Of a DNA stretch of 64,000 bases, positions 1 through 41,961 are shown piece by piece. Position numbers and translations under genes: made by a program. The notes beneath the pieces were generated by a model. The model saw only the letters and a list, made by a program, of their open reading frames with translations. It was not told the origin of the DNA and made no database searches. Every line of letters begins with the position of its first letter. Within the stretch, counting starts at the first letter, position 1. This stretch comes from an uncultured delta proteobacterium (GTDB lineage Bacteria > Desulfobacterota > Binatia > Binatales > Binataceae): contig CAWCDG010000004.1 in NCBI GenBank assembly GCA_963794325.1, positions 1,440,001-1,504,000 of the forward strand. Reading direction: 5' to 3'.

Positions 1-816
1 CGATTGGATCAGGCTGCGCCGAGAATTTTTGTCGTTCAGCTGGGTGGCGCGGCGGGAACGCTGGCGGCGCTCGGCGCGGATGGACCTGCGGTAGCCGAGG
101 AGCTTGCGCGCGAGCTCGCGCTCGGTGTTCCGGACTCGCCGTGGCACGCCCAGCGCGATCGATTTGCGGAGGCTGGTGCGCTGCTCGGGCTGATTTGCGG
201 AAGCTTGTCGAAATTCGCGCTTGACATTTCGCTGATGATGCAGACCGAAGTTGGCGAGGTGTCCGAGCCGCACGAAGCGGGCCGTGGCGGGTCGTCAACG
301 ATGCCGCAGAAGCGTAATCCGATCGCGAGCGAGTACATTCTCGGCGCCACGCGTGCCGTGCATGCTTTGGTGCCGGTGATGCTTGGCTCGATGACCGCGG
401 ATCACGAACGCGCGACTGGGCCGTGGCAGAGCGAGTCGCTTGCGTTACCGCAATGTGTAGCTTTGACCGCGGGCGGGTTGGCGCATGCTCGTTCGATTGC
501 AGAAGGTATGACGGTCGACACCGAGCGCATGCGGCGCAATCTCGAACTGACTGGTGGATTGATCATGGCTGAAGCAATCGCGACTGCGCTGGTGCCGCGG
601 ATCGGTCGTGCTGCGGCCGAGGCCGCGGTTGCGCGCGTCTGCAATCGCGCGATCGCCGAGGGCGCACCACTCGCGGCGATCCTTGGCGAAGATCCTGGGT
701 TGCGGCCGCACCTGAGCGGCGCTGAGATCGAGAGACTTCTGGATCCCGCTCAGTACCTTGGATCGGCAGGCGTCTTCGTCGATAAGGTTGTCGCACGAGT
801 TGCCGCGCTCCGGTAG
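1..816 (+). CDS. Fumarase/aspartase-superfamily lyase, PcaB-like (3-carboxy-cis,cis-muconate cycloisomerase / adenylosuccinate lyase family); 5' end outside window
   Basis: Signature GGSSTMPQKRNP; QLGGAAGTLA, WHAQRD and DHERATGPWQSE motifs typical of PcaB-like lyases. Confidence 0.85.
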   Translation, partial: RLDQAAPRIFVVQLGGAAGTLAALGADGPAVAEELARELALGVPDSPWHAQRDRFAEAGALLGLICGSLSKFALDISLMMQTEVGEVSEPHEAGRGGSSTMPQKRNPIASEYILGATRAVHALVPVMLGSMTADHERATGPWQSESLALPQCVALTAGGLAHARSIAEGMTVDTERMRRNLELTGGLIMAEAIATALVPRIGRAAAEAAVARVCNRAIAEGAPLAAILGEDPGLRPHLSGAEIERLLDPAQYLGSAGVFVDKVVARVAALR

Positions 817-841
817 CGGCTTCTTCAATCAGGAGGCGCCG

Positions 842-1975
842 ATGAAAAACGAGTCACCTCACAACCCTCCGTTTCGCGCCGATCACGTAGGCAGTCTGCT
901 GCGCCCGCTCGAATTGCTGAAGGCTCGCGCCGACCGCGCGGCCGGCAAAGTCTCAGCCGAGGAATTGCGTGCCATTGAGGACTCATCGATTCGCAAGGCG
1001 GTGGCGTTTCAGGAGAGCGTCGGGCTTCAGTCGATCACCGACGGCGAATTTCGCCGCGAGATTTTTTATTCCGACTTTTATTTCCGAGGCCTCGGCGGCG
1101 GCACGGTTGCTTACGATCCGTCGTCGATCGACGAGGTCTATTTCATCGATCGCGAGGGTCATAAATTGCCACTGTTGGTGCCGCGAGTGCAGGCGCGGAT
1201 GCGCTGGCATGATCCGATCCACGTGGACGACTTCAAATTCCTTCGCGCGGCGACAACGCGCACCCCGAAGATTACGATTCCGTCTCCTACCATCATCCAC
1301 TTCCGCGCCGGCCGCGAGAATATCAGCAAGGATGTTTATCCGGAGATCGATCTTTTCTGGGAAGATATCGTCGATGCGTTTCAGCGGGAGTTAAAGGCAC
1401 TTGCCGCCGCTGGCTGCACCTATGTGCAGATAGATGAGACGACGCTGGCATCGCTGAGCGACCGGCGAATTTGGGAGCCATTGCGAAAGCGTGGCGATGA
1501 TGCTCGCATGCTGTTGCTCGATACCTATCCTGCGGTGATGAACCGCGCGTTTGCGGGCCGCCCAGCTGGGTTGCAACTCTCGATGCACATTTGCCGTGGC
1601 AATAATCAGAGTCATTGGAGCGCCGAGGGCGGATACGATCTGGTCGCCGATACGCTGTTCAACAAGATCGAGGTTGATTCTTATTTTCTGGAATACGACA
1701 CGCCGCGTGCCGGAAGTTTCGAACCGCTGCGGCTGGTGCCAAAGAACAAAACCGTGGTGCTCGGGCTGGTCTCGAGTAAATTTCCAGAGCTCGAATCGAA
1801 GGATTCACTCAAGCGCCGAATCGAGGAGGCCTCGAAATTTGTCGGGCTCAACCAACTCTCGATCAGTCCGCAATGCGGATTTGCGAGCACTGCGCCCGGC
1901 AACAAAATTTCCGCAGCGGACCAGCGCGCCAAGCTGGAGTTGGTGGTTGAAGTTGCCAAGGAAGTTTGGGGCTAG
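842..1975 (+). CDS. Cobalamin-independent methionine synthase catalytic-domain family protein (single domain, YxjH-like)
   Basis: PPFRADHVGSLLRP, ITDGEFRR, zinc ligands HICRGN and SPQCGFAS; RBS AGGAGG before ATG 842. Confidence 0.88.
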   Translation: MKNESPHNPPFRADHVGSLLRPLELLKARADRAAGKVSAEELRAIEDSSIRKAVAFQESVGLQSITDGEFRREIFYSDFYFRGLGGGTVAYDPSSIDEVYFIDREGHKLPLLVPRVQARMRWHDPIHVDDFKFLRAATTRTPKITIPSPTIIHFRAGRENISKDVYPEIDLFWEDIVDAFQRELKALAAAGCTYVQIDETTLASLSDRRIWEPLRKRGDDARMLLLDTYPAVMNRAFAGRPAGLQLSMHICRGNNQSHWSAEGGYDLVADTLFNKIEVDSYFLEYDTPRAGSFEPLRLVPKNKTVVLGLVSSKFPELESKDSLKRRIEEASKFVGLNQLSISPQCGFASTAPGNKISAADQRAKLELVVEVAKEVWG

Positions 1976-2158
1976 CCGCAAAGATTTCAGGAAGATGACC
2001 GCCGCCATCGACTCGCTACCGCACCGCCTGGATTAGCTACTCGCTTTCGCAGCCTCCTTCGAAAATGAGTACTGCGCCGTCGGATTTACACTAACTTGAG
2101 CGGATGGTAGCGTCGGCCAAAGGTTTCGTGCTGGGGGGCCGGGATCGAGGGGATTTGC

Positions 2159-5100
2159 GTGGCACAGAACGATGGCGGCTCAGCCGAGCGTCGAAGCCAT
2201 CCAAGGTCGCAGCCAGCAGGCGATGGGCACGCGGGCGTATTCGCGTGCAGCGGCGAGTATTGGACTCTCGGCTATGACAACGCCAGTTTCACGCTGAAGG
2301 ACATCAAGGGACTCGGCTACATTCAACGCCTGCTGAAGCATCCTGGCGAAGAATTCCATGCGCTGGATCTCCTCGGTAGTACCAGTACGAGCGCCGCTTT
2401 CGAAGTGGAGGGAGCGGACCAGACTTCGCTGCTCGGTAGCGCCACTGTCAGCGTCGGGGGACTCGGCGACGCGGGCGAGATGCTCGACGCGAAGGCCAGG
2501 CAGGAATATCACCGCAGACTCGTTGAGCTTCGTGAGGACCTCGAGGACCTGCGCGAGCGCGGAAACGAGACGCGCGCCGCTGAAGTCGAGTCCGAGATTG
2601 ATTTTCTGAATCGCGAGATAGCTCGGGCGGTTGGTCTAGGCGGGCGAGATCGGCGCGCCGGGTCTGCCGCAGAGCGCGCGCGGCTTAATGTCACGCGAGC
2701 TATAAAATCCGCGCTGCAAAAAATTTCCGAGCATCATGGCCAACTCGGCGAACTGTTGGATCGATCGATCAAAACGGGATCGTTCAGTTGCTATCTTGCC
2801 AATCCGCGCACACCGGTAGCCTGGCGATTCTCGCTCGACGAGGGCGTCAAGCCGTCGGTAGGCGTCGAAGTCACGGCGCCGATTTTCTCGCGTCCCGAAA
2901 CCAGTCTCGTTCAATCGCTCGGCGATCGCACCGCATTTGTCGGCAGAGAAACGGAACGCTCGATGCTTCGCCGACTGCTGGAGCGAGTCATTGCCGGCGA
3001 GGGCGCGGTGGCGATGATCGGAGGGGCGCTCGGCGTTGGCAAAACCCGAATTTCAGCAGAGTTCGCGGCTGAGGCTTCGGCGCGAGGATTCGTTACGCTG
3101 GTGGGTAGCTGTTACGATCGCGAGAATTCCCTTCCGTTCAACCCGTTCGTTGAGATTCTCGAGTCGGCGATGGCTCAATCGACAAGCCAGGAAGTCTTCC
3201 GTAACGCGCTCGGGAATGACGCGGGCGAGATGGCTCGATTGATGCCGCAGCTCCGCCGTCTCTTTCCGGACATTCCACCCCCGCTTGAAGTTTCGCCGGA
3301 GCAGTCGCGAAGGATTCTCTTCAACGCGGTCGTAGAGCTGCTCGGCCGAAGCGCCTCGACCGGTCCGATCCTTCTGCTATTCGAAGACCTGCATTGGGCT
3401 GACGAAGGAACGCTGTCGCTGCTGAATCATATTGCGCGCTCGATATCGAGAATTCCGGTGCTGATACTGGGCACCTATCGTGACAATGAGATCGATTCCG
3501 GCGGGCCTTTCGCGCAGACACTCGACGAGTTGCTACGCATTCATATGCTCGACAGGATCAATCTGCGAGGCCTGCCGCAGAGCGCTGTTGCGGAAATGAT
3601 TCGTGCACTCAGTGGGAAAGAGCCGCCAAGAGAGGTCGTGAACCTGATCTACTCGGGCACCGACGGCAATCCATTCTTCGTCGAAGAGCTTTTTCGCCAT
3701 CTCGTCGAGCGCGACAGGCTTATGGATGAGAGTGGTGAGTTTCGACGGGATCTCAATCTGACTGAGATAGACGTCCCGCAAACTTTGCGGCTTGTGATAG
3801 GACGGCGGCTGGCACGACTCACCGATGAAGCGCAAAAGATCCTGGGTCCCGCCGCAGTCATAGGACGATCATTCACCTTCGAGCTCCTGGAAGCCTCGAC
3901 CGATATTGAAGCAGACTCACTGCTGGATTGCGTTGAAGAAGTCGAAAAAGCAGGGCTGATTTACTCGACCCTGGGTTACCCGGAAGCGAACTTTCAGTTC
4001 TCTCATGAGCTGATTCGGAGTGCCGTCCTTAGTGACCTATCCGCTCCGCGTCGTCAACGGATCCATCTTAATGTGGTCAGCGGAATCGAGCGCGTTCACG
4101 CCAATGCTCTCGAGGATCATGCGGGAAATCTGGCGCATCATCTGTGGCAAGCGGGCCGAGCAGCGGATCCCGATAAGACGGTTCACTTTCTGACGCTGGC
4201 CGCACAACAAGCACTTAAGCAGAGCGCCTATGAAGGAGCGCTTCGTTATTTCCAGAATGCGCTGGAGCTGCTCAGAGTGTTGCCGTACTCACAGGAGCGG
4301 GCGGGGCGCGAGCTGGATCTACAACTCGACTACGGGCTCGCGTTGCTCGCCACTAAAGGCTGGTACGCTCCTGAATTGGGAAGCACCTATAGACGCGCTC
4401 ATGAGTTGTGCCAGAGTCTTGGAGGTGATCTTAAGCTCTTCTCAGCACTTTCCGGACTGTGGAGCTACCACTTGGTGCGAGGCGAGCACACGATGGCGCT
4501 CAGTTATACGGATGAAATGGCTCGCCTGGCGCCCACCATAGAAAATGAGGGAATGCTGATTCAGGCCGACTGGGCATCTGGCTGCAGTCGATTTTTCAAG
4601 GGTCAATTTGTAGAAGCGCACGCGCGTCTCGAGCGGGGAGCGGGACTGTACGATCGACACAGGCACCGAGCACTAGCGTCTCAATTCGGGCAAGACCCGT
4701 GCGTGAGTTGTCATTGTTTCGATGCGATGACACTTTGGATGCTTGGCTATCCCGATCAAGCCGAGAGAAAGGCGCAAGAGGCCATCAGGCTTGCACGGGA
4801 TCTGGATTATCCGTTCACACTCACCTGGTGCCTATCAATGATTGGGAAGTACTACTCGATGCGCCGGGACTATGTGGCCGCGGAAACGGTAATAGCTGAA
4901 GGCCTGACACTTACAAAGGAGTATGGATTTTCCTTCTTTACGGAGTCGCTGCTCGCGTATCGCGTGATCGGTGCGGCAGCTCAGGGAAGAATAGATCAGA
5001 TGACTGCCGGCGGCGGCAACCCCGGTGGATTTGCGGCCGCTGGTTATGAGTTGGCGCATACCTGGGCCCGATCGACTATAGCAGAAGCATTGGGTGATCT

Positions 5101-5536
5101 TGGGCAAGTCGACATAGGATTCGCGCTATTGGCCGAGGCCAGGGAGCTGATGGTACGGAATGACGAGCGTTACGTGGAAGCGGAAATACATCGGATTCAC
5201 GGTGAATTGAAGCTGAAACAGGCGGCGCGCGACTCGTCGAACCCGGCCAATGCGTCGAAGTGTGAGTCAGAGGCAGAAGAGAGCTTCCGCAAGGCCATTG
5301 ATATTTCTCGTGCGCGCAGCGCCAAGACATTGGAATTACGCGCGACGACTAGCTTGAGCCGTATGCTCGTAAAGAGCGGTAGACAAGCAGAGGCGCTTTC
5401 TCTCCTTCAACATATATGCGATTGGTTCAGCGAGGGCTTGGATTGGCAGGAGCTTCAGGCCGCCAAATCGATTCTGGCTGATCTTTCAAAATCTGAATCT
5501 GATCAAAAGCGCCCTATTCGATCGCTAGCTCGTTGA
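2159..5536 (+). CDS. AAA-ATPase/TPR signal-transduction protein with an N-terminal putative DNA-binding module
   Basis: FVGRETE, Walker A GALGVGKT, Walker B FEDLHWAD, GNPFFVEE, FSHELIR, C-terminal ELRATTSL...WFSEG helical repeats. Confidence 0.85.
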   Translation: MAQNDGGSAERRSHPRSQPAGDGHAGVFACSGEYWTLGYDNASFTLKDIKGLGYIQRLLKHPGEEFHALDLLGSTSTSAAFEVEGADQTSLLGSATVSVGGLGDAGEMLDAKARQEYHRRLVELREDLEDLRERGNETRAAEVESEIDFLNREIARAVGLGGRDRRAGSAAERARLNVTRAIKSALQKISEHHGQLGELLDRSIKTGSFSCYLANPRTPVAWRFSLDEGVKPSVGVEVTAPIFSRPETSLVQSLGDRTAFVGRETERSMLRRLLERVIAGEGAVAMIGGALGVGKTRISAEFAAEASARGFVTLVGSCYDRENSLPFNPFVEILESAMAQSTSQEVFRNALGNDAGEMARLMPQLRRLFPDIPPPLEVSPEQSRRILFNAVVELLGRSASTGPILLLFEDLHWADEGTLSLLNHIARSISRIPVLILGTYRDNEIDSGGPFAQTLDELLRIHMLDRINLRGLPQSAVAEMIRALSGKEPPREVVNLIYSGTDGNPFFVEELFRHLVERDRLMDESGEFRRDLNLTEIDVPQTLRLVIGRRLARLTDEAQKILGPAAVIGRSFTFELLEASTDIEADSLLDCVEEVEKAGLIYSTLGYPEANFQFSHELIRSAVLSDLSAPRRQRIHLNVVSGIERVHANALEDHAGNLAHHLWQAGRAADPDKTVHFLTLAAQQALKQSAYEGALRYFQNALELLRVLPYSQERAGRELDLQLDYGLALLATKGWYAPELGSTYRRAHELCQSLGGDLKLFSALSGLWSYHLVRGEHTMALSYTDEMARLAPTIENEGMLIQADWASGCSRFFKGQFVEAHARLERGAGLYDRHRHRALASQFGQDPCVSCHCFDAMTLWMLGYPDQAERKAQEAIRLARDLDYPFTLTWCLSMIGKYYSMRRDYVAAETVIAEGLTLTKEYGFSFFTESLLAYRVIGAAAQGRIDQMTAGGGNPGGFAAAGYELAHTWARSTIAEALGDLGQVDIGFALLAEARELMVRNDERYVEAEIHRIHGELKLKQAARDSSNPANASKCESEAEESFRKAIDISRARSAKTLELRATTSLSRMLVKSGRQAEALSLLQHICDWFSEGLDWQELQAAKSILADLSKSESDQKRPIRSLAR

Positions 5537-5546
5537 AGTAGACTCG

Positions 5547-6548
5547 GTGGGTCGATGCTCAACCATCAAGGCGCTCATCATCGGCGCATCCGGGCACCTA
5601 GGCAACGCTATCGTTCGCGAGTGCCTGGACAGGAGCTACAGGATTACTGCGTGCGGCCGCCGGAGTGTTCCTGCGGCCAACCTGTCCGATCTGCCGATCC
5701 GCTACCTATCGGGAGATAGCGTGACGCCGGGACAACTTGACAAATGGATAGCCGGGCACGACCTGGTCGTAGATGCGGCAGCCCCTTACCCCCTTAGCGT
5801 GTTTTCTCCTGTGAGCGAAGCCGGCAAGGATCCGATTGCGCACGCCGAGCGAAGAACACGGCTGCTGCTTGACGCCGTTTGGAGGCATAAGTCGCGGCTG
5901 GTTTACGTCGGTTCGTTCGTTACCCTTGTCAAACCTCGTACGAGTGTTCAGCGTTTCCAGCATGAGATGATGCGGCTCGCGCATCCCTACTTCGAGGTGA
6001 AGGAGCTGATTGAATCGCAAATGCTCGAGGCGAGTCGGCGCGGACTTCCGGTCGTCATCGCGAACCCTACGTACTGCCTCGGGCCGTGGGACTTGCACGA
6101 CCGGCGACTATGCACGATCCCACTACTGCTGCGCGGAGAGATACCTTCTTCCATCACCCAGATGCTGAACGTGATCGATGTTCGCGACGTCGCCGCAGGG
6201 ATCGGCGCTGCTATAGATGCCGAATACTACGGCAAACCGATACAGATGAGCGGTCACGACATCTCTACACAGGAATTGTATTCACTGATTTGCGAACTTG
6301 GCGGTGTGCCGCGACCGAGGATATCCACGGCGGCATCGCTAGCGCTCGCCGGCGCCTACGCCATGGAATTGACGTTGGGCGCGATAGGAGAGACAACCCT
6401 GCTGCCGGCCGGAGGAATGATGATGGCCGCTATGTTTGATTACATGGGAGTCGGCAAAGAGTTGCAGGAACTGGGTATCACTCCGAGGCTCCTCTCTGAA
6501 ACCGTCGTTGATGCTATCAAATGGTATCGTCAGATTGGCTATTGCTGA
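5547..6548 (+). CDS. NAD-dependent epimerase/dehydratase (extended SDR, HpnA/dihydroflavonol-reductase-like)
   Basis: GASGHLG Rossmann motif, YFEVK (YxxxK), NPTYCLGPWD, NVIDVRDVA. Confidence 0.85.
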   Translation: MGRCSTIKALIIGASGHLGNAIVRECLDRSYRITACGRRSVPAANLSDLPIRYLSGDSVTPGQLDKWIAGHDLVVDAAAPYPLSVFSPVSEAGKDPIAHAERRTRLLLDAVWRHKSRLVYVGSFVTLVKPRTSVQRFQHEMMRLAHPYFEVKELIESQMLEASRRGLPVVIANPTYCLGPWDLHDRRLCTIPLLLRGEIPSSITQMLNVIDVRDVAAGIGAAIDAEYYGKPIQMSGHDISTQELYSLICELGGVPRPRISTAASLALAGAYAMELTLGAIGETTLLPAGGMMMAAMFDYMGVGKELQELGITPRLLSETVVDAIKWYRQIGYC

Positions 6549-6564
6549 TGCCGTAAGATTCTCA

Positions 6565-8895
6565 CTAGGGCATCCTCTTCTTTCGTTTCAGTGCAATCAC
6601 TCTTCGCGCGGCTCCTTTTCGGATGCGTCCGATACTGCTATCAAAAGCCGGGACGCGCTGCCAACGGGTCCCTACACGCGAGCACATCTCAAGGCCCGTA
6701 TCGCCAACCATCGCGCCGGATATCCAGAACGGATCGACCGGCTTCAAGGTATACATCGGGTATGGCCCGGTGCTATCGCAGTCTTCAGGTATCAATCCGA
6801 GTGTTTCGACAATCGGGAACGTTGGATAGTCGAAGACCCTGACTGCCAGCGGCGGTAGCGCACCCGTTGCCGGACTTCCCGCGTGGTCTTTGAGTCCTGT
6901 GAATTGGCGAAGGAGCGCTACGAGCGCCTGGTAATTTGCCAGCGCACAGTCTTTTGCATCCATGACTTGCTTTAGTGAGATGCTGTGAAATTCATTGCCG
7001 GTAAGGAAGTGTTCCAGGCCGAGTTGCTTAAGGTATGTTGCGATTGAACCGCGAGATCCCGATCCCGGCGCGGAAAGGATTTCCAGCACCGTCATATCCT
7101 TTGCTTCCTGGCTCTTACCAAGCTCCGGAAAAAGCTGGGTACTCACCGCCAAGAGCGGTTCCGGTTCGCGGTGAGCTGTGGGAGGGACGAGCCAGGCAAT
7201 ATCTGGATTAGATAGGTTCGACTTGAGAGACAATTGCCCGAATACCTCGTACGACGTCACCGTATTCCAGTCAGTACCCGCGAATATGTATAGTGGAATC
7301 AGCGCGGGACTCTTGACGCCAGGAATGCGCTTGTCCCACCATACCACCGGCACCGCAAACGTCAGCTCGCGATCGGAGTACTTAGTGTCTCGATCGCCGG
7401 CCGCAGTCATTTGATCGAAATTGGCACCTATAAGACAAACTACCGCGTGTGTTCCACTCTTGTCTTCGAGCTGTCCGGCCACCTCGAATTTGAAGAAATC
7501 GTTTTCCAGGTACCTATCGAGCATGTCTTGCAAACCACGCTTTTCAGCTTTGAGAGGCATCACTCGAAGTGTTATCTGCGGGAAGTGATAAGGGCCGCTC
7601 ACCTCCTCGCCCGCGCCGCTTCCCAGGTTGAGATAGGCAATCTCTCTTCGCGGCATTTGTTTTGGAGTATCGCCGGTATTCCATTTGGTGGTATTCGTAC
7701 GCCAGCATTGCGAATCCGCCAGCCCATAACCGAGATCCATCTTTAGCCAGAAAGGCATCATAGGGCGCACCGTCGATGCAGGTTTGCCGCCAACGCTGGA
7801 ATGTTCCGACGTCTCTATTCCTAACGTCCGCACGATAGGCTGAACCGCGGTGTCGCGAAGGTTGACGTAGATTCCGCCAGATGGGTCTCCCGAAATTGGA
7901 TCGAACAGAGAGCCACCATCGATGGTTCTTTCGATTTGCATCTTCGATCCGACGATTGCCTGAAAACAGGCAGCCGACGAACTGTGCACACCACGGATTT
8001 GCTTCATGGTGATGACGCTCATGGGAGCAATCAGAGAACCCTGAATCGAGGTCTGCTGCGATTGTACGTCTTCGGGCGGTGCACGAAACGAAGTAGGGGC
8101 CACCGACGTCGATAGTCCGTAAAAGCGCGACAACATCTCCTGCAGTGACTTTATGTCGCGATCGGAATAGCCGATTGGGAAGAAGCCCGCGGTCTCGAAA
8201 ATGCTAATAGCCGCCGTTACTGAACTTGCTATTGCCCGCGGAATAGCGGTGAACAAATCGGTAACGGCGGAGCTGGCCGACATGAAGGGCCTGCGTTGAA
8301 AGATTTGCAGGAACTCCTCGGCGCCTGACTGTTCGCCATAGTTAGTGCCTGAGGTAACGAGGCTGATGCTGGCCAGGCGCCGTGCATTGCCAGCCTCGAA
8401 GATTGCCGGACTAACATCGATCTTGATTCCGGACTTGGACCATCCGTAGATCTTGCGACCACCGGACATAGAGAGTGGGTTGTCCACGAAGATAAATGGA
8501 AACACCATTGCCCAATCGGCGAATACCCAGTTCCTTTTCTCTTTCTTATAGCATCGAATCGGGACGCCAAATGCCAGCTCATGCTGCGAGAACCATCCTA
8601 CGTTCCTCGACGAAACAGCCATCTGCCCGTAGTCGACAACTTGCATCAAGACCCACGGCACGGCGGGCTTGAAGTAGAGAGGCAGCTCTTCGTCCAGGTT
8701 GAGATAGTTGTCACAAAATTCCTGGAGCCGATCCATGCTGGCCTTCAGAGGAAAAATCTGCGTCACTACATCGCTGTATTTCTGTTCGAGATGAGCCGGT
8801 AGAGCTAGAAACTCGCCGAGGGCATGATTGAATTTAGGTAGAGCCGCAGTTCTGCTTATTCGAGGCGGCTGAGTCTTCTTCTTGGCCATGGACAT
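6565..8895 (-). CDS. Hypothetical protein with two tandem acetoacetate-decarboxylase-like domains
   Basis: Internal duplication: FPLKASMDRLQEFCDNYLN vs MPLKAEKRGLQDMLDRYLE; SQHELAFGVPI vs SDRELTFAVPV; ITMKQIR..ACFQAIV vs ISLKQVM..ANYQALV; ADC-like motif GRKIYGWSK. Confidence 0.65.
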   Translation of the reverse strand: MSMAKKKTQPPRISRTAALPKFNHALGEFLALPAHLEQKYSDVVTQIFPLKASMDRLQEFCDNYLNLDEELPLYFKPAVPWVLMQVVDYGQMAVSSRNVGWFSQHELAFGVPIRCYKKEKRNWVFADWAMVFPFIFVDNPLSMSGGRKIYGWSKSGIKIDVSPAIFEAGNARRLASISLVTSGTNYGEQSGAEEFLQIFQRRPFMSASSAVTDLFTAIPRAIASSVTAAISIFETAGFFPIGYSDRDIKSLQEMLSRFYGLSTSVAPTSFRAPPEDVQSQQTSIQGSLIAPMSVITMKQIRGVHSSSAACFQAIVGSKMQIERTIDGGSLFDPISGDPSGGIYVNLRDTAVQPIVRTLGIETSEHSSVGGKPASTVRPMMPFWLKMDLGYGLADSQCWRTNTTKWNTGDTPKQMPRREIAYLNLGSGAGEEVSGPYHFPQITLRVMPLKAEKRGLQDMLDRYLENDFFKFEVAGQLEDKSGTHAVVCLIGANFDQMTAAGDRDTKYSDRELTFAVPVVWWDKRIPGVKSPALIPLYIFAGTDWNTVTSYEVFGQLSLKSNLSNPDIAWLVPPTAHREPEPLLAVSTQLFPELGKSQEAKDMTVLEILSAPGSGSRGSIATYLKQLGLEHFLTGNEFHSISLKQVMDAKDCALANYQALVALLRQFTGLKDHAGSPATGALPPLAVRVFDYPTFPIVETLGLIPEDCDSTGPYPMYTLKPVDPFWISGAMVGDTGLEMCSRVGTRWQRVPAFDSSIGRIRKGAARRVIALKRKKRMP

Positions 8896-8952
8896 TCCCC
8901 CGATTTTGTTGCACCTAAAGTCAGCAAAGCGTTGGTTGTTACCTGGGCCTTA

Positions 8953-9667
8953 CTAGTCCGCAATTCGAATACTCAGTGTTCCTCGAGTCTCGCCGGTCTC
9001 GCGATCTACGATTACGCCAGAGTAGGTACCCGGAGGTTGGCTCTCTGGTATTCGAAGACGCAGCTTAACGCGGCCTGCCACTTCGTCAGGTACCAAACTG
9101 ATATCTCTCAAAACCGGTTTCCGGGAATCAACGGCGCTTAGGCCCAGAGCTACAAGGGATTGAGATTCCGAATTCGGACGGAGTTCGACCGATACCTGGA
9201 CGGGTCGGAGCGAGGCTACTTCTATCGATACAGCCATCATTTCGGCGTCGTTTGCATGAGGTCGAGTTGCCGGGTCGGGTGCGTGGCCGTTTTGTGAGGG
9301 ATAAACTTTGACGAGTGTTGATAGTGTTTCGATCCAGAGCGGAAGCATCTCGGCCTGAAAGCGTAGCATCCGCTCGACAAGTACTTGCAGGTTGTCGCCT
9401 GGCGCGATGAGTTGTATAAGGCTGAGTGCTGAAGCCCTCGGCCGCTCGCCGCCCTTCGGCGATGTGCTTTTCGATCACGCTATACGCGAGTTCGACACCT
9501 TCGGCCAGTGGATTTTCACTCCTCGCGACACGACCTGTGTCGGGTGGGACTGGCTTTGCGGGACCGGATCCGTTGGCAGAATCGGATTTGCTATATAGCT
9601 TCGAGAAATTGCGGACCGGTGTAATCCTCGCCGGATCACCGCGATGGAGTCGTTTGCGATCGTTCAT
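8953..9667 (-). pseudogene. Hypothetical protein split by an apparent frameshift near 9410 (or an assembly error)
   Basis: ORF 9128-9667 has an RBS-like GGGGGAAC and looks coding up to QPYTT; ORF 8953-9369 is open upstream of its ATG (APGDNLQVLVER-MLRFQ) in the adjacent frame; lies between two co-oriented genes. Confidence 0.55.
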
Positions 9668-9682
9668 GTTCCCCCGCAGCGT

Positions 9683-11944
9683 TCAAGGATGGTCGAAAGC
9701 CACTATGTCTTCAAGTGCTGGTGAATGTGAAATTGCGTGCGCAGCGAGCCTGCCAGAAATCACGGCCGCTTCGACGCATCCCGCGTCAAGCCCGCAGGTC
9801 GTCCAATCACCCGCTATAGTCAGGTTGTCGTAGGTGTTATCCAATGGCGAGATGCGGTATTTCTGAGTGCCGGGCAGCGAAAGTACGTAACGTTCGGTCG
9901 GGTTCACATTCGCGGTCCAATGTTGAGAGTCAAAACGAGCGTGACTCCCGCGGGAAGATCGACGACCATGTTTTGTCTCTCCAGGAATCATCAGTAGGTC
10001 CCATCTGAATTTGCCGCGCCGACTTACAGCCTTCGGCCAAAGCTGTGCGATGTCATCGTTGAGATAATGAATCGCATTTTTCTGAACCTCATGGCGTCGC
10101 CGCTTCGGGTAGCTAATAGCTGACATCTCTCCAGGCGTTAACGGATCCTTCAGTGCGCTACAGAAGTAAGCTATAGCTTTCGGACTCACCTTCCAACTTT
10201 CTTCGCGGATCAGGTGACTCATATCTGCCCAGGTTTCGAAAGGCTGCACAAACGCCGACAACGCCAGCGGAGGATCCTGCCATCCTAATTGCTCCATATC
10301 TTCGCGAAGCCAGATCTGAAAGGCCTGTGTGTTTACGGTCTTCAGATGCGTTACCATATCGCGCCAGCGCTGATCTCGTTGAATAAGGTCCTGGCACACA
10401 TACGGAACAGCTCCCAGGCCGACGCCCAGAACGACGAAATCAAAATCGTCGGTCACTCGCAAAGTCTTAGTCGCGGCTTTTGTGCGGTCCCAATGCGACT
10501 CGAAGTCTCGATCATCGCGCTTGAATTTGCTTCCGTCGACCAACTGCGAGTAGTCCGGCTTCGACGGCCAGCAGGGCAGTCCCCCAACATCGATCAATGG
10601 CGAGTATTCCTGGCGGTTCCTGACTTGCGCCTGCACGTCGAACTCGAGTGCTTTGACATAGGGGCGCTCCCCTTCCGCAAGCTCTGCAGGATCGGCCAAT
10701 CTTACTTTTTCCAGGCGATGAAAAAATTTGAAAGTTACTCCGCGTTTTTTCAGTACTTCATACATGGGCGCGAAGACTGTATCCCCCATGCCGGCATGCA
10801 TTTTCCAAAAGATCGCGCCGCGCGAGCTGAACAGCATTCGTAGCGCCCCACGAAGTGCAACTCCAGCCCCGTGTCGCGGACGTTGATAGTCTCCGTCTTC
10901 GTAAGCGAAGACGAGATCGTAGGCGCCGCGGATGATAGGTGACTCGAGTGAACGCTCCGACGCACCATTGATTCGGAGCCACTCGCGAAAGTCGTAGTCG
11001 TTGATAGCGTCGAACCCTCGCGGATCCGAAATCAGGCCGAAGCGAAGAATTCCTCGCATCGATGCCATCGCCAAATCCACAGCCTGCCATAGAATCAACA
11101 GTTCAGGATCGTTCTCAACAATTGCTTCGAGTTGACGTCGAGCACTGGCGGCGATTAGTTCGAGGAGTTGCGCGATCCCGTTGTCCGGATAGATAGAACG
11201 CGGTGCAAAGGCCAGCTCGAGCGTTTCGACAGCTTCAATTAGAGCGGTTGTCGTCGCGATCCAGCCCAGCCCCAGAAGACGTGCTATGCGTTTAGGAGGT
11301 TCGTCTGACGGTTCGGCGGTCTTCGAGTTCGACTTATAGGAGTGTCGCGCCTCGGAAGCGTCGCTTTCTGTTCTAGACGAGCTGCGGCTGCTTCGACTCG
11401 CCTGCGCCGCAAGGAGCAGGGTCCGCAAAATGCTGGCCGTGCGGGCGAGATAAGAGGTGACTGTAAAAGGATCGTTCTCGGTGACGGGATCGCCGGGTAG
11501 GCCGTCGCCCGGCGGGAAGTACGACAAGAAATTCCAATAGGTGCCGTTGTTCGATCGCTGGGTCAGCCCGATAAAAGGGGCTGGGGAGAATGCGTCCCGC
11601 CAATCCGCGATTCTGCATTTGCGCCGATCGCGGTTCAATTCTGTGTAACACTCGCGAATCAGCCGAAATGCATTCTCGTAGGAACCCATCCAAAGATGAA
11701 GGCCGTGTTCTTCGATTCGGTTGGCGGGACCGCGGCCCGAAGCGCCCTTGCCGCCAAGACGCCAGCCGAGTTGATAAATTGTTACCTGGTATTTGCCTTT
11801 GTGCTCTGGACGACTCAGTTCGAAGGCGGCCGAAATCGCGGCGCATCCGCCTCCGATGACGGCGACTTTGATCGGCGTCTCTTTGGGCAATTCATTTGTT
11901 CGCACAATCGGATTTCTCGGCAATTGGGTAGCCGAACGAAACAT
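9683..11944 (-). CDS. FAD/NAD(P)-binding oxidoreductase related to the carotene desaturase (PDS/ZDS/CrtU/HpnE-like) flavoprotein superfamily
   Basis: VAVIGGGCAA dinucleotide fold, RLGGKGASGR, IEEHGLHLWMGSYENAF, C-terminal IAGDWT...GCVEAAVISG. Confidence 0.8.
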   Translation of the reverse strand: MFRSATQLPRNPIVRTNELPKETPIKVAVIGGGCAAISAAFELSRPEHKGKYQVTIYQLGWRLGGKGASGRGPANRIEEHGLHLWMGSYENAFRLIRECYTELNRDRRKCRIADWRDAFSPAPFIGLTQRSNNGTYWNFLSYFPPGDGLPGDPVTENDPFTVTSYLARTASILRTLLLAAQASRSSRSSSRTESDASEARHSYKSNSKTAEPSDEPPKRIARLLGLGWIATTTALIEAVETLELAFAPRSIYPDNGIAQLLELIAASARRQLEAIVENDPELLILWQAVDLAMASMRGILRFGLISDPRGFDAINDYDFREWLRINGASERSLESPIIRGAYDLVFAYEDGDYQRPRHGAGVALRGALRMLFSSRGAIFWKMHAGMGDTVFAPMYEVLKKRGVTFKFFHRLEKVRLADPAELAEGERPYVKALEFDVQAQVRNRQEYSPLIDVGGLPCWPSKPDYSQLVDGSKFKRDDRDFESHWDRTKAATKTLRVTDDFDFVVLGVGLGAVPYVCQDLIQRDQRWRDMVTHLKTVNTQAFQIWLREDMEQLGWQDPPLALSAFVQPFETWADMSHLIREESWKVSPKAIAYFCSALKDPLTPGEMSAISYPKRRRHEVQKNAIHYLNDDIAQLWPKAVSRRGKFRWDLLMIPGETKHGRRSSRGSHARFDSQHWTANVNPTERYVLSLPGTQKYRISPLDNTYDNLTIAGDWTTCGLDAGCVEAAVISGRLAAHAISHSPALEDIVAFDHP

Positions 11945-11969
11945 CCAACATAAGCGCGATTAGGTCAAC

Positions 11970-12072
11970 CGCGGATTCTTACTCGCGAAATCCCAGCCGG
12001 CTCAGCCAGAGACCGAACACCAATCCGGTCGGGCCTGCGCCGACGATGAGAACGTCGGTATCGTGATTTGGG
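11970..12072 (-). pseudogene. Relic N-terminus of an FAD-dependent monooxygenase
   Basis: Translates as HDTDVLIVGAGPTGLVFGLWLSRLGFR, then stop at 11979-11981; VRI continues in a shifted frame; no in-frame start codon. Confidence 0.7.
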
Positions 12073-12088
12073 GCGTGGAGAGAGAGGT

Positions 12089-12117
12089 GTAGTGGCGGAC
12101 GATTGGTCCGCCACTAC
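12089..12117 (-). terminator. Hairpin downstream of the Flp pilin gene
   Basis: Perfect 12-bp stem GTAGTGGCGGAC / GTCCGCCACTAC with a 5-nt loop, followed on the minus strand by a pyrimidine run. Confidence 0.65.
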
Positions 12118-12136
12118 GAGGTTTCAGCTGGGTTGC

Positions 12137-12307
12137 TTACAGCTTCCCGTCAACGCTGCTCAGCAGCGTGGTGATCGTCGTACCCATGGTCTGGTAGCCG
12201 GCGAAAACCACCACCGCGACCGCCGCCATGATCAGCGCATACTCGGCCATTGTCTGACCGCGCTGATACTCGCGCACCTTTACGTACGCCCTCGTGATTG
12301 TGCCCAT
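12137..12307 (-). CDS. flp: Flp family (Tad/type IVb) pilin, 56 aa; absent from the ORF track
   Basis: MGTITRAYVKVREYQRG-QTMAEYALIMAAVAVVVFAGYQTMGTTITTLLSSVDGKL: prepilin G|xxxxEY motif and hydrophobic helix; RBS AAGGAGG. Confidence 0.92.
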   Translation of the reverse strand: MGTITRAYVKVREYQRGQTMAEYALIMAAVAVVVFAGYQTMGTTITTLLSSVDGKL

Positions 12308-12548
12308 TGCCCGTGTCCTCCTTCTTTTGTTGTCCGGCCTGAATTTGCCACCGTCCCTGTGGTAAGCCCAACAGACAGATTAATATACTCTTTGTAGGCT
12401 TGTGTAAAGCGGCGCGCAAACGACAAATTACCAGTAAATAAACGTTGCCGTGATTTTCTTTGCGAGGTGGCTTGAAAGACAAATGGGCGGGACCAGGGAC
12501 GTGCAGCGGGTGAATCAGTCGTGCGAATGACGGAATAGCCGAGATGCG

Positions 12549-13583
12549 ATGACAACTGAAAACGGCTCAGGCATTGTCTCCACAATCTTGCGCGAATACG
12601 GCAGCCTGACGCGTGCCGCGCTGAAGGAGTACCTGCCCGAACGCGAACCGCGCCGCTATCTGTACGACCTCCTCAACGACTACCCGCAACGCGGCGGCAA
12701 GATGATGCGCCCCGGCTTGTGCATTGCTACCGCGCGGATGTTCGGAGCGCCGATCGAGCAGACGATACGCACCGCGGTTGCGATTGAGCTGCTGCACAAC
12801 GCATTGCTGATTCACGACGATATTGAGGACGGCAGCGAGCAGCGCAGGGGCGCTCCCACCCTTCACGTACTTCACGGTGTGCCGCTCGCGCTCAATGCCG
12901 GTGACATGCTCTCGTTGATGGCGTTCCAGCCGCTGCTCGACAATCGGTCCGTCGTCGGCGACGAGCTCTGTCTTCGAATCATCGAAGAAACCCAGCGGAT
13001 GGCGCGTGAGTGTGCCGAAGGACAGTCGATGGAACTCGGCTGGCGCCAGTACAATGCGACCGAAATCGGCGACCGCGAATATCTGGAGATGGTGCTGAAG
13101 AAGACCTGCTGGCTGGCGACGATTTTCCCGATTCGAGTCGGCGCGATAATCGGCAGCCGCGGGACGGCCGACCTCGAAGCGTTTTTGCGATTCGGATTCT
13201 TCCTGGGCGCGGCCTTCCAGATTCAGGATGACCTGCTCAACCTTGTCGGCGACGAGCGCTACGGAAAAGAGCGCGACGGCGACCTCTGGGAAGGAAAACG
13301 GACCTTGATGCTGATTCAAGTCTTCCGCGAATCGACTCCCGACGAGCGAGAGCGCCTTGGCGCGGCGCTGGCTGGCCCGCGGGCAACGCGTTCCCCATCG
13401 GAAGTCAAATGGATGCGTTCGTTGTTCAAAAAATACGACGCATCAGCTTACGCGCGGAGAATTGCTCAAGAGCTGGCGGGAGCCGCGCTTCACGAGTTTT
13501 CTCTGCTATCCGCCGGGCTTCCCGAATCGCGCGACAAAACTTTTCTCGAACAAATGGCGATCTGGGTTATCGAGCGAAACTGA
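12549..13583 (+). CDS. Trans-polyprenyl diphosphate synthase family protein (GGPP synthase-like)
   Basis: GGKMMRP, FARM HDDIED..RRG, GQSMEL, KKT, second motif QIQDDLLN, GDLWEGKRT. Confidence 0.9.
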   Translation: MTTENGSGIVSTILREYGSLTRAALKEYLPEREPRRYLYDLLNDYPQRGGKMMRPGLCIATARMFGAPIEQTIRTAVAIELLHNALLIHDDIEDGSEQRRGAPTLHVLHGVPLALNAGDMLSLMAFQPLLDNRSVVGDELCLRIIEETQRMARECAEGQSMELGWRQYNATEIGDREYLEMVLKKTCWLATIFPIRVGAIIGSRGTADLEAFLRFGFFLGAAFQIQDDLLNLVGDERYGKERDGDLWEGKRTLMLIQVFRESTPDERERLGAALAGPRATRSPSEVKWMRSLFKKYDASAYARRIAQELAGAALHEFSLLSAGLPESRDKTFLEQMAIWVIERN

Positions 13584-13639
13584 CTCGGTTGCGTCGGTTC
13601 GCTGCCGCGGACTATGAGTCAGCAAGGAGATAGTCCGGC

Positions 13640-14980
13640 ATGTCTTCGGAACCTTTCGATCCGCTCGCTTCGTCCGCGCCGCTCATCGTTTACGTAGACT
13701 ACAAGAGTCCGTACGCGTACCTCGCGATCGATCCGACGTGCGCGTTGGAAGACGAACTCGGCATCGAGATTGATTGGCGACCCTTCACCCTCGACATTCC
13801 GAGCTATCTCGGCTCTGCGCGACTCAGCCACGAGGGCAAGGTGGTCGAGAACGAGCGCACGCCGGGCCAATGGACCAAGGTGAAGTACGCGTATCACGAC
13901 GTGAGACGCTACGGGTCTCTGCGCGGAATCGTCATCCGGGGCGCGACCAAGATGTGGGATTCGTCGCTCGCAGGGATCGGAATGCTATGGGCCAAGGATC
14001 AAGGCAGAGCGGTGCGCCGCGCATACTCGGGCCTGGTGTACGAGCGCTTTTGGAAGCGCGAGCTCAACCTCGAAGACGCCGGAGTTATCGAGCGCGTACT
14101 TCACGAGGCTGGCGCACGGACGGCGGGCTTCCATGATTACGCGTCGGGTGAGGGTCGCACGCTCCACGACAGAATCCAGCGCAGTGCATTCGACGCGGGG
14201 ATCTTCGGAGTACCGACGTACGTGGTTGACGGCGAAGTCTTCTTCGGCCGAGAGCATCTTCCGCGAATTCGATGGATGCTCACTGGGCGCTCTGGCGCGC
14301 CACCCGACATTGCCTACCGCGATTTCCCGGCCGAACGCGCGGCGGTGCACGAAAACGTCAAAGGTCAAATCGCGGTCGTGATCGATTTCAAGAGTCCTCA
14401 AGCCTACCTGGCGATTGGGCCAACCTGCGCGCTCGCCGATGAGCTCGAGATGACTATCGACTGGCAACCGCTGATCGTCCCGCCGTCGAAAACGCCGGCA
14501 TCGCCAGCTGCGGGAGATGACCGCGGCGCGCGCCATCGTCGATTCCGTGCGGATTACCTGGAGCGCGATGTTCATCGCTACGCCAATGATCGCGGTCTTG
14601 TGATTGGCGGCCTTCATCGGCGCACGGATTCAACACTCGCCGCGATCGGACTGTTATGGGCCGGACGCCGGGGTCCGTCGCTCGCGCGGGCATACGTCGA
14701 GCGAGTTTTCGAACGCTATTGGCGAGAGACTCTCGACCTCGAAGACGAACGCTCGATACTAGCCGTGCTGACTGAGATTGAGGCGCCGATTTCCGGATTT
14801 GAAGCATTCGTAAAAGGCGATGGCCGCGCTGAGCTCGCGCGAATTCAAACAGAGCTGCGCGACAAGGAAGTCTTCGAGGTGCCAACCTATCTACTGAACG
14901 ACGATACTTTCCTAGGCCGCCAGCACCTGCCACTCATCCGGTCGATCCTTTCGGCCAGCAGTGCGCAATCACAACGCTGA
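13640..14980 (+). CDS. Tandem DsbA-like / 2-hydroxychromene-2-carboxylate isomerase (GST kappa-like) two-domain protein
   Basis: Two homologous halves: DYKSPYAYLA...GIFGVPTY...FFGREHL and DFKSPQAYLA...VFEVPTY...FLGRQHL. Confidence 0.82.
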   Translation: MSSEPFDPLASSAPLIVYVDYKSPYAYLAIDPTCALEDELGIEIDWRPFTLDIPSYLGSARLSHEGKVVENERTPGQWTKVKYAYHDVRRYGSLRGIVIRGATKMWDSSLAGIGMLWAKDQGRAVRRAYSGLVYERFWKRELNLEDAGVIERVLHEAGARTAGFHDYASGEGRTLHDRIQRSAFDAGIFGVPTYVVDGEVFFGREHLPRIRWMLTGRSGAPPDIAYRDFPAERAAVHENVKGQIAVVIDFKSPQAYLAIGPTCALADELEMTIDWQPLIVPPSKTPASPAAGDDRGARHRRFRADYLERDVHRYANDRGLVIGGLHRRTDSTLAAIGLLWAGRRGPSLARAYVERVFERYWRETLDLEDERSILAVLTEIEAPISGFEAFVKGDGRAELARIQTELRDKEVFEVPTYLLNDDTFLGRQHLPLIRSILSASSAQSQR

Positions 14981-15016
14981 AATGCGGAAGCACCCGGAGC
15001 GTCGATGCCCAAGACC

Positions 15017-15065
15017 TGGAGCCACCCGCGGCATTCGAACCGGCGACCTGCCGATTACGAATGAG
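15017..15065 (-). repeat. Degenerate duplicate of the tRNA-Thr(CGT) 3' portion (att-like site)
   Basis: TGGAGCCACCCGCGGCATTCGAACCGGCGACCTGCCGATTACGAATGAG matches 23990-24038 at 45 of 49 positions in direct orientation. Confidence 0.9.
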
Positions 15066-15285
15066 TCCGAAGGCAGGCTGCTATTGATCACCGCGTAACA
15101 AGATTCGCGTGAAATAAGGAGTTTGTTGGAATCGAGATCCGTGGCGTATCCCGGCAAACGCAGACACCGATCACAGAGCCCGACGATAGGTTCTTATCAT
15201 CAAATCACAGAAGGTCGTTCAACTGACGCGGCTTGCTCGCATTCCCGCAGCGGGCGCAAGCGGCGCTACGGCCGGCCGATGATAA

Positions 15286-15918
15286 TCACCTCAATTTCTG
15301 GTCTTTCAGAAAGTTCATTTCTTCCTGCGTGGATTGTCTTCCGAGGGCATCGTTTCGACCTGGGAACCTTCCAAATCGCCGGAATACTTCCAGATGCTGC
15401 TCTGCGTGCTGGAGAATTTCGGTGCAATCGCGATTTTCCGAGACCAGCTCGGACGTGAGCCGCACCGACTCCAATTGATCATTCAGATTTTCGCTATGTT
15501 CGAGCGGAAGGTACAGAAACATTCGCATCATCGGGGACAACGCGCGGTCAAATCCAGCCGAGACAGCGTGGCGGGTCAGTTCGCGCGCCTTTGCGTCAGT
15601 TGCGAACGCTCGGGCGGTGCCGCGGAACATGTTGCGCGGAAATTGATCCAGCAGCAGAACCAGCGCGAGGCAACTTCGCGGATCGTTCTTCCAGTCCTCA
15701 AGCCGTCCGTGCGCGGCATCTTCGTAGCTGGCAAGGAACCGCGTCGTACAAAGCCGGTCGAATTCCGAAGTCGGGAAAAACCAGCGCGATTGAAACATGC
15801 TTTCCCTGGAACCCGGTTCGTCGGCAAACCAAAAGAGCAGAACCTTCTCAGCATCTAACCCAGCATTTTGACTGCCATCCCGAGCTCCACTCACGACGAT
15901 ATACCTCGCTTCAATCAA
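15286..15918 (-). CDS. DUF924 family protein
   Basis: VLLFWF, LALVLLLDQFPRNMFRGT, FLYLPLEHSE, RFGRFPGRN..LGR. Confidence 0.88.
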   Translation of the reverse strand: MIEARYIVVSGARDGSQNAGLDAEKVLLFWFADEPGSRESMFQSRWFFPTSEFDRLCTTRFLASYEDAAHGRLEDWKNDPRSCLALVLLLDQFPRNMFRGTARAFATDAKARELTRHAVSAGFDRALSPMMRMFLYLPLEHSENLNDQLESVRLTSELVSENRDCTEILQHAEQHLEVFRRFGRFPGRNDALGRQSTQEEMNFLKDQKLR

Positions 15919-19332: not shown

Positions 19333-19369
19333 ACTGGGTCGATCAGTTTTGGCGGTTGTTCGATAGCTG

Positions 19370-35171: not shown

Positions 35172-35293
35172 CAGGCATCACCTCCCTCCGTGATTAGAGT
35201 CAATTCTGGGTCTCGAAATTTTACGGAGTCAAGTATCTACCACCTAATATCATCAAAATGTGCATTAATTCTACTAATTGGCTGATACTGGGG

Positions 35294-35338
35294 AAAAAAG
35301 AAGCGGGGCGATGTGGCCTGTTTGCCGCATCGCCCCGC
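35294..35338 (-). terminator. Intrinsic terminator between the DUF1329 paralogs
   Basis: 15-bp stem GCGGGGCGATGTGGC / GCCGCATCGCCCCGC (one mismatch on the minus strand) followed by TTCTTTTTT. Confidence 0.8.
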
Positions 35339-35383
35339 CGAGGTTACCGGGAGCTAAGCTCCTGATTTATCTAACGAATCAGC

Positions 35384-36688: not shown

Positions 36689-36923
36689 TCTTTGGGAAAC
36701 CTCCTGGGCGGCTGCGAAAAGGCAGGCCATGACATAGTGATGAACAAGCACAGCATCACATCGGTTCCCGGGAGACAATAAGAAGAGATTACTTTGTCTT
36801 CATGACGAGTCAGTAAACATAAGTAATGGTTATGCAAGGCACAACTTTGAATAATGAGCTAAATGGTTGATTTTACGGACTAAATGTCGGAAGAAAGGCG
36901 GGGGTGAAACCAGCCGGACTAAG

Positions 36924-39077: not shown

Positions 39078-39098
39078 TCCGATCGGCGCCCGCGGATG

Positions 39099-40313: not shown

Positions 40314-40421
40314 GGACGGTGCTCAATTATCATCCGGTCATTCATCGGTTTCCAGTAACCACCACCTGATAGACGTACCTCTGCCGTCGGGGTTTCGCGG
40401 CAGGAAGGGGGGAGAATTCCT

Positions 40422-41941: not shown

Positions 41942-41961
41942 TTTTGGGGCGGAGGGATTCT

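Follow-up and report, generated by a model that had tools for sequence, protein, structure and literature searches.

We describe a gene module whose core is a flavoprotein resembling phytoene desaturase (PDS) and a protein of the acetoacetate decarboxylase (ADC) fold. The module lies in a 64,000-nucleotide stretch of DNA from the uncultured delta proteobacterium Candidatus Binatus (assembly GCA_963794325.1, contig CAWCDG010000004.1, positions 1,440,001 to 1,504,000; hereafter the window). The flavoprotein and ADC-fold genes, together with those for a small partner protein, a polyprenyl diphosphate synthase, a reductase and a signalling-type ATPase, are a conserved unit and not chance neighbors. 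We give slightly better than an even chance to the view that the module, with the ADC-fold enzyme acting through a conserved lysine, builds and reshapes a small isoprenoid lipid. A first-pass annotation, made from the letters of the window alone, had placed six genes between positions 2159 and 13583, and all six are found there by the open reading frame (ORF) listing and by Pfam and NCBIfam scans:

2159-5536, + strand: AAA_16 (STAND-like) ATPase with tetratricopeptide repeats (TPR), 1125 aa (Pfam AAA_16, 84.9 bits)
5547-6548, + strand: extended short-chain dehydrogenase/reductase (SDR), 333 aa, HpnA-like (Pfam Epimerase, 44.6 bits)
6565-8895, - strand: 776-aa tandem ADC-fold protein (structure model and fold searches)
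8953-9667, - strand: small partner protein, about 237 aa when corrected (two frames match a 239-aa ORF of relatives)
8953-9369, - strand: 138-aa ORF as called, the 3' part of the small-protein gene
9683-11944, - strand: 753-aa FAD flavoprotein of the amine-oxidase/PDS fold (Pfam Amino_oxidase and NAD_binding_8)
11945-12548: divergent intergenic region of 604 nt between the flavoprotein operon and the relocated synthase
12549-13583, + strand: trans-polyprenyl diphosphate synthase, 344 aa (PF00348, 187.9 bits)

Conservation of the gene unit

The 776-aa ADC-fold protein is the rarest member of the set, and a genome search anchored on it returned 19 loci in species-representative genomes. At 18 of the 19 loci the genes for the flavoprotein, the small protein, the synthase and the ADC-fold protein follow each other in this order on one strand; the exception, L019, is a locus cut 1150 nt upstream of the match. 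The SDR is likewise present in 18/19. In L002 the intergenic gaps among the four operon genes are only 12-17 nt, and the SDR and AAA16-TPR genes converge on the operon. This collinearity persists down to 29% identity of the ADC-fold protein, in a metagenome-assembled genome (MAG) labelled Rubrivivax sp. Of the cassette genes the synthase is conserved best, retaining 62-75% identity where the ADC-fold protein retains 29-39%.

A second search, of metagenomes and anchored on the flavoprotein, found 80 loci with 46-91% identity over the best aligned segment (50-83% where the flavoprotein was matched full-length). Gene counts were taken over loci with enough downstream DNA, and those for the reductase and the AAA16-TPR protein over the 18 loci that are wide on both sides. 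Of 46 loci, 43 have the small protein next to the flavoprotein; all 42 informative loci contain the synthase, which lies directly 3' on the same strand in 40 of them; and 26 of 32 loci encode the multi-domain ADC-fold protein. At least two of the six loci lacking the latter have instead a single-domain ADC-like gene upstream, which in one locus exceeds the Pfam gathering score, with 30.1 bits, and in the other falls short of it, with 21.2 bits. An AAA16-TPR protein is encoded in 17 of the 18 wide loci and so is an NAD(P) reductase, which is the SDR in nine loci and a saccharopine-dehydrogenase-like enzyme in eight, never both; this looks like non-orthologous replacement of one function. Cassette-bearing loci span 52-74% GC. 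The gene-neighborhood comparison that the first-pass annotation had proposed as the check on its candidate cluster shows that the unit is kept across genomes, and a chance neighborhood is ruled out.

The module is an accessory, patchy trait, probably scattered horizontally. The ADC-fold protein is encoded in 2 of 201 sampled genomes of the phylum to which the window belongs. Within the family 11 of 61 genomes, from 7 of 30 genera, encode it, and neither of the two other genomes of the genus does. Such an accessory distribution would suit a catabolic or detoxifying module that degrades an external isoprenoid or lipid aldehyde, as would the fusion of one member of the flavoprotein family to an MpaB/Lcp (rubber-oxygenase-type) domain. 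However, polyprenyl diphosphate synthases serve biosynthesis, and here the synthase is the most strongly conserved of the cassette genes, while uptake or beta-oxidation genes are not conserved near the cassette loci. We regard degradation as distinctly improbable.

The arrangement in the window is not the usual one. The first-pass annotation correctly described the synthase gene as divergent from the flavoprotein unit, but this is not typical, since relatives carry it within the operon. In this genome the synthase gene has moved upstream and been inverted, still adjoining the operon, and it is truly absent between the small-protein and ADC-fold genes because one short-read contig bridges that junction. 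Within window positions 11945-14980, the synthase gene is followed after a gap of 57 nt by one for a 446-aa DsbA-domain protein, which is not found near the cluster in relatives.

Several loci vary in other ways. A second tandem ADC-fold copy of about 37% identity lies divergently upstream of the flavoprotein gene in L015 (3620-5833) and L016 (3621-5799), and genome G246 likewise encodes two copies of this protein, one with an in-frame TGA. In one sub-lineage (L077, L078, L083, L085 and L094) the flavoprotein gene is preceded by genes for a pentapeptide-repeat protein and a Ser/Thr kinase-TPR protein. In L013 and L014, which are long-read MAGs, the flavoprotein, ADC-fold and SDR genes appear as broken tblastn pieces, consistent with indel errors and not with decay.

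The enzymes and the small partner protein

The flavoprotein belongs to the flavin amine-oxidase family by its scores against PF01593 (41.7 bits, cut-off 19.8) and PF13450 (34.2 bits, cut-off 21.9). Its translation contains the motifs that had led the first-pass annotation to the desaturase group, EEHGLHLWMGSYENAF near residue 78 and IAGDWT near residue 711. An AlphaFold model (predicted local distance difference test, pLDDT, 85) has rice PDS (5mog) as its best fold match (E 8e-17, TMt 0.76, probability 1.0). Other amine oxidases follow at about 1e-11, five orders of magnitude behind, and those next after PDS are tryptophan 2-monooxygenase, LSD1, L-amino-acid oxidases and nicotine oxidoreductase. 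A profile search against the sequences of the PDB gave weak N-terminal matches only, to PDS at 1.1e-05, and among NCBIfam models it is those for HpnE, zeta-carotene desaturase (ZDS) and PDS that best match the N-terminal motif region.

The flavoprotein is nonetheless none of these three enzymes. HpnE (TIGR03467) scores 59.6 bits against a cut-off of 283.05 and matches only the N-terminal 75 residues and the C-terminal tail; ZDS (TIGR02732) scores 30.8 bits against 622.15 and PDS (TIGR02731) 28.8 bits against 569.4. These scores, and the existence of true hpnCDE genes elsewhere, lead us to reject those identities. It shares with PDS, ZDS and HpnE the FAD amine-oxidase fold, the N-terminal EHGLH..G.Y and C-terminal GDW motifs and the linkage to a polyprenyl synthase. 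Unlike them, it is about 280 residues longer, with a helical bundle of about 140 residues inserted at about 162-301; it has no phytoene or squalene synthase partner; and it is modelled to bind a small partner protein. With 2079 clusters at 50% identity (E<=1e-30) the family is very large, and the annotation of its members goes no further than "NAD(P)-binding protein", "FAD-dependent oxidoreductase" or "acetoacetate decarboxylase".

The same genome supplies the reason to reject the cluster as a hopanoid hpnE/hpnA set, for the true hpn genes lie on another contig. The true HpnE is encoded at G000:C2:69339-70667 (398.5 bits), in an hpnC-hpnD-hpnE row, and the genome has just two PF00494 genes, which lie at C2:67619-69251, on a contig other than that of the window. 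The cluster does resemble hopanoid hpnCDE/hpnA sets in its polyprenyl synthase, HpnE-like flavoprotein and HpnA-like SDR. It differs in that HpnC and HpnD are absent from it, in that the HpnE-like and HpnA-like scores fall far under their cut-offs, and in that the SDR is swapped for an unrelated reductase in about half of the metagenome loci. The SDR itself carries the GxxGxxG and YxxxK motifs, and its best NCBIfam match is HpnA (TIGR03466), with 134.9 bits against a cut-off of 367.65. The first-pass annotation had noted that no synthase of the squalene/phytoene family and no terpene cyclase is encoded in the window, and had concluded that the cluster matches no standard carotenoid or hopanoid operon; a Pfam scan of 32 further ORFs of the window likewise found neither type of enzyme, and the conclusion holds, with the real hpnC/D/E genes located elsewhere.

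The tandem ADC fold that had been assigned to the 776-aa protein is backed by structural comparison. Its AlphaFold model (pLDDT 78) consists of two beta-barrel halves. The top Foldseek matches are ADC, MppR and Sbi00515 (probability 1.0, TMt 0.52-0.62), and for residues ~421-745 VIA-align gives Z values of 17-19.8 (that is, up to about 20) with 229-246 residues aligned at a root-mean-square deviation of 3.4-4.0. Swit_4259, like Sbi00515 an aldolase-dehydratase, is also among the structural neighbors, and several of the nearest ADC-type PDB entries are Schiff-base or pyruvate complexes, judged by their titles. A profile of the ADC-fold protein found no relevant match among PDB sequences; some orthologs and fusion proteins exceed the gathering score of the Pfam ADC family, PF06314.

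The N-terminal half carries the best conserved stretch of the family, GGRKIYGWSK. K154, R147 and E106 are invariant across 18 diverse sequences, and the lysine motif is retained in 95 of 98 family members. Match ranges and motif positions, combined by hand, place K154 on column 109 of the Pfam ADC profile, the same column as the motif lysine of the fusion proteins. The column-109 lysine is putatively the Schiff-base lysine of ADC, which stands in a G-R-E-x-x-G-x-P-K context; the titles of the nearest PDB entries fit this assignment. The protein thus resembles ADC, MppR, Sbi00515 and Swit_4259 in its beta-cone ADC fold and in a G-R-x-x-aromatic-G-x-x-K motif with an invariant lysine. It differs from these in having two ADC-like domains per chain (three in other lineages), with the lysine motif in the first only, and in its association, by linkage or fusion, with a flavoprotein and a prenyl synthase.

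Gene fusions join the two core proteins directly. Among the 150 best representatives of the flavoprotein family, 48 are at least 900 aa in length, and 35 of these long proteins were scanned. A Pfam ADC domain, at either end, is present in 11 of the 35 and a polyprenyl_synt domain of the same subtype in one; the other fusions are to DUF5995 (two), a methyltransferase (one) and the MpaB/Lcp domain (one), and there are five double flavoproteins. The motif GRExxGxxK occurs in 25 of the 48 representatives of at least 900 aa and in 0 of 93 unfused ones. The first-pass annotation had suggested a search for fusions with the synthase subtype and with ADC-like genes, and both kinds exist: many lineages have the flavoprotein joined to ADC-like domains, and one cluster representative has it joined to this synthase subtype.

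A fused architecture occurs in the order of the Rubrivivax-labelled MAG (Burkholderiales-type), where the flavoprotein is encoded in 10 of 121 sampled genomes. One locus of that order, L110, has the full cassette together with a cyclase-AAA16-TPR gene. Eight further loci have fusion-length genes of about 1035-1072 aa, and in the four that were examined (L106-L109) the gene is an ADC-flavoprotein fusion and has no synthase gene near it; a search of four fused-type genomes found the small protein in none. Fused proteins are encoded by the cultured genera Chitinivorax, Duganella, Pseudoduganella, Massilia, Janthinobacterium and Rugamonas, and the names they bear are generic throughout.

In an alternative reading the chemistry is not that of isoprenoids. 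The flavoprotein would then be an amine or amino-acid oxidase generating an imine or keto acid, which the ADC-fold enzyme would process in the manner of MppR in enduracididine synthesis, with the synthase merely adding a prenyl group or being a passenger. This would accommodate the amine and amino-acid oxidases that follow PDS among the fold matches, the keto-acid substrates of the nearest structural relatives of the ADC part, and the fused form without a synthase. However, PDS leads the fold matches by five orders of magnitude in E-value, the N-terminal motif region is matched best by the HpnE, ZDS and PDS models, and the synthase is present in 42/42 informative cassette loci, with one cluster representative in which it and the flavoprotein form a single protein. 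We consider the non-isoprenoid alternative improbable.

The synthase retains the first aspartate-rich motif (LLIHDDIED, that is, with DDIED kept) and in the second has DDLLN instead of DDxxD, the DDxxN form being present in 62 of 62 cassette orthologs. The enzyme is probably a short-chain, C20-type synthase, a guess made because DDxxN is the variant of eukaryote-type geranylgeranyl diphosphate (GGPP) synthases. Its PF00348 score of 187.9 bits exceeds the cut-off of 27, and its scores fall below the equivalog cut-offs of both IdsA (NF040698, 205.7 bits against 468) and GGPP_syn (NF041003, 177.2 bits against 500). It is one of three isoprenyl diphosphate synthase genes in the genome, and a housekeeping role as farnesyl diphosphate or GGPP synthase was rejected, since the genome has two others.

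The small hypothetical gene reported by the first-pass annotation is present, but the 138-aa ORF is only part of it. The gene runs from 9667 down to 8953 on the minus strand in two frames, with one extra base near 9406-9408, and the true product is about 237 aa: the first ~89 codons of an overlapping ORF (from 9667 down) and the 138-aa ORF together correspond to one 239-aa ORF in every relative. The split is most likely an assembly error because the extra base at 9406/9408 is missing from short-read contigs of all four public runs that cover the site (4/4, from one study), and on the same ground a programmed or real frameshift was rejected. A polyprenyl synthase gene elsewhere in the genome (G000:C2:62473-63169), 4.5 kb from hpnC/D/E, is also read in two consecutive frames (PF00348 positions 3-122 and 115-226) and looks like another single-base assembly error.

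The small protein matches no Pfam family, and a protein atlas gave unnamed clusters only. In its alignment a conserved N-terminal peptide, R-x-x-R-x-x-P-x-R-x-x-P-x-R, is followed by two helices, a variable linker and, at the C terminus, a beta-rich domain. The linker of P0280, the fusion of flavoprotein and synthase, does not resemble the small protein, and P0280 is therefore not a triple fusion. Structure prediction of a complex between flavoprotein and small protein scored 0.72, against 0.00 for the best of three controls; among 157 solved complexes 116 attain the score mark that we used, as do 2 among 215 mismatched pairs, and these counts are only a rough guide here because custom alignments were supplied. 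Contact agreement in the complex runs was at least 18% and the pLDDT of the partner at least 49. The confident interface comprises residues 4-22 and 24 of the small protein, including the invariant R9, P17 and R19, and on the flavoprotein the regions around residues 291-299, 484-490, 685-704 and 723-739. The modelling supports docking of the small protein on the flavoprotein through its conserved N terminus.

An interface confined to a conserved N-terminal peptide (residues 4-22) raises the alternative that the small protein is itself the substrate, its N terminus entering the flavoprotein as the histone tail enters LSD1, so that the module would, for example, prenylate and oxidize it. LSD1 is among the fold matches, and the ComQ-type peptide prenyltransferases are members of the polyprenyl synthase family. 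Nevertheless, the synthase retains a complete set of synthase motifs, with a PF00348 score of 188 bits, no protease or exporter is present, and fused-type genomes lack the small protein (0/4). A role as substrate is hardly probable at all.

Proposed pathway and the signalling neighbors

In our model for the cassette, a dedicated short-chain polyprenyl diphosphate synthase, probably making a C20 product, would supply an isoprenoid chain. The flavoprotein, held by the N-terminal peptide of the small protein, would oxidize or desaturate this chain or a derivative of it. The ADC-fold enzyme would then carry out Schiff-base chemistry with its conserved lysine on the resulting carbonyl or on that of a co-substrate, for which decarboxylation and pyruvate-type aldol condensation are the precedents, and the NAD(P) reductase would finish the product. 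The adjacent AAA16-TPR signalling protein may sense or control the process. The identities of the genes, the folds, the linkage, the fusions and the retained lysine motif are observations, from which we infer the substrate, the order of the steps and the product.

Carotenoid end-group tailoring offers a further comparison. The CrtD desaturase works there with the CrtC hydratase and the CrtF methyltransferase, CrtP and CrtNb are aldehyde-forming oxidases, and there is precedent for CrtI/PDS-type flavoproteins that make isoprenoid aldehydes. The likeness lies in the combination of a CrtI/PDS-type flavoprotein with a beta-barrel partner and in the one family member that is fused to a methyltransferase. 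Unlike that system, none of the carotenoid end-group enzymes was detected here, and the barrel is of the ADC fold with a putative Schiff-base lysine and not of the AttH/CrtC type; AttH reaches a Z of only 4.0 in the VIA-align comparison with the 776-aa protein.

Several points weigh against this model. The flavoprotein scores far under every HpnE, PDS and ZDS cut-off, and the Pfam ADC match of the 776-aa protein (PF06314, 17.2 bits, E 0.0039, residues 71-154) is under the gathering score of 29.8. It is by profile positions that the motif lysine is equated with the catalytic residue of ADC. One of the three complex runs scored only 0.33, and the fold of the small partner is itself uncertain. 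None of the enzymes that could turn a prenyl diphosphate into the usual kind of substrate for a PDS-type enzyme (phosphatase, head-to-head synthase, cyclase) is present. Finally, the flavoprotein-ADC fusion exists without a synthase or small protein nearby, and because of this synthase-less form the substrate may not have to be the isoprenoid made by the dedicated synthase.

In the wide metagenome loci the signalling neighbor is as frequent as the reductase, and its recurrent link to second-messenger signalling was not noted in the first-pass annotation. In the protein encoded at 2159-5536, the N-terminal ~250 aa match no Pfam family, Pfam and NCBIfam scans found no kinase or cyclase domain, and TOMM_kin_cyc (TIGR03903) is matched over the AAA16-TPR part only, with 309.6 bits against 705.75. 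The SDR gene is co-oriented 10 nt 3' of it. Orthologs with 76-85% identity are encoded at the same position in L001-L014. Five AAA16-TPR regulators from the metagenome loci were scanned: four have a zinc ribbon and a class III cyclase domain, and in L042 there is only a 3' cyclase trace. At the loci with fusion-length genes the neighbor is of another kind. A gene for a 7TMR-DISM-GGDEF diguanylate cyclase lies directly beside the fusion-length gene in six of the eight loci, the outer genes differing, a seventh adjoins a kinase-AAA16-GAF-PAS-histidine-kinase gene, and none was recognized in the eighth; all eight come from one bacterial order and include kin, so that the independent cases are fewer than eight.

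These neighbors raise the alternative that flavoprotein and ADC-fold enzyme, which in the cassette would be supplied by the synthase, make a small lipid-like ligand to which the neighboring sensor responds by setting the level of cyclic AMP or GMP (cAMP/cGMP) or of cyclic di-GMP (c-di-GMP), the sensor being the TPR region of the AAA16 cyclases or the 7TM part of the 7TMR-DISM-GGDEF proteins. In the cassette the new signalling lipid would be a C20-type carbonyl, formed by flavin oxidation and lysine-enamine C-C chemistry and read by the adjacent cyclases. In favor of this are the AAA16-TPR protein in 17/18 wide loci, the class III cyclase in four of the five regulators scanned, the histidine-kinase or GGDEF genes beside seven of the eight fusion-length genes, and the SDR gene lying co-oriented with the AAA16-TPR gene, 10-18 nt apart, in the window and in relatives. 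However, adjacency cannot separate production of a ligand from ordinary regulation of an enzyme, and the eight fused loci are from a single order, close relatives included. There is no evidence of an exporter or of a receptor-ligand pair, and large AAA16-TPR proteins are abundant in these genomes, with three within 24 kb here. We rate both the signalling reading as a whole and the specific C20 carbonyl signal as unlikely.

Our literature search, which did not extend to subscription journals, found no description of this gene set or its product, and within that coverage the pairing of an ADC-family enzyme with a flavoprotein and prenyl synthase was not found either. The parts of the Binatota genome paper that were seen name only standard crt and bch genes, and in those parts acetoacetate decarboxylase, polyprenyl, squalene and hopanoid are not mentioned (PMC8262859).

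If the isoprenoid-lipid model is correct, the module would represent a new branch of bacterial isoprenoid metabolism that bypasses squalene and phytoene, and would give multi-domain ADC-fold proteins their first role. It could also reveal ligands for AAA16-TPR cyclases and 7TMR-DISM GGDEF proteins, both of them large classes of orphan sensor, and should the product be a signalling lipid, this would be a new kind of bacterial circuit from lipid hormone to second messenger. Although Candidatus Binatus is uncultured, the presence of the fused form in cultured genera makes the question accessible to ordinary genetics.

Other features of the window

Three large AAA_16-TPR paralogs are encoded within 24 kb, at 2159-5536, 15919-19437 and 20969-23878, each with a different N-terminal output: respectively the ~250-aa domain without a Pfam family, a zinc ribbon with a class III cyclase, and an OmpR-type Trans_reg_C DNA-binding domain. 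PADLOC-DB, which covers anti-phage defense systems, has no family matching the flavoprotein, the ADC-fold protein, the small protein, the synthase or the SDR; its only matches are a weak one to a BrxD-like P-loop and, on the regulators, those to cyclase domains. Rfam at gathering thresholds gave zero matches in window positions 1-20000. In the divergent region at 11945-12548 no sigma-70-like site was found, and its one terminator-like hairpin does not exceed shuffled sequences.

Other envelope and lipid genes lie at 33873-43293 and 61921-63510 of the window, with no connection to the module seen. They encode two DUF1329/LolA-like proteins, a MacB-HlyD efflux pair, a CMAS-type cyclopropane or methyl-branch synthase and a fatty-acid desaturase and, further on, an outer-membrane efflux protein.

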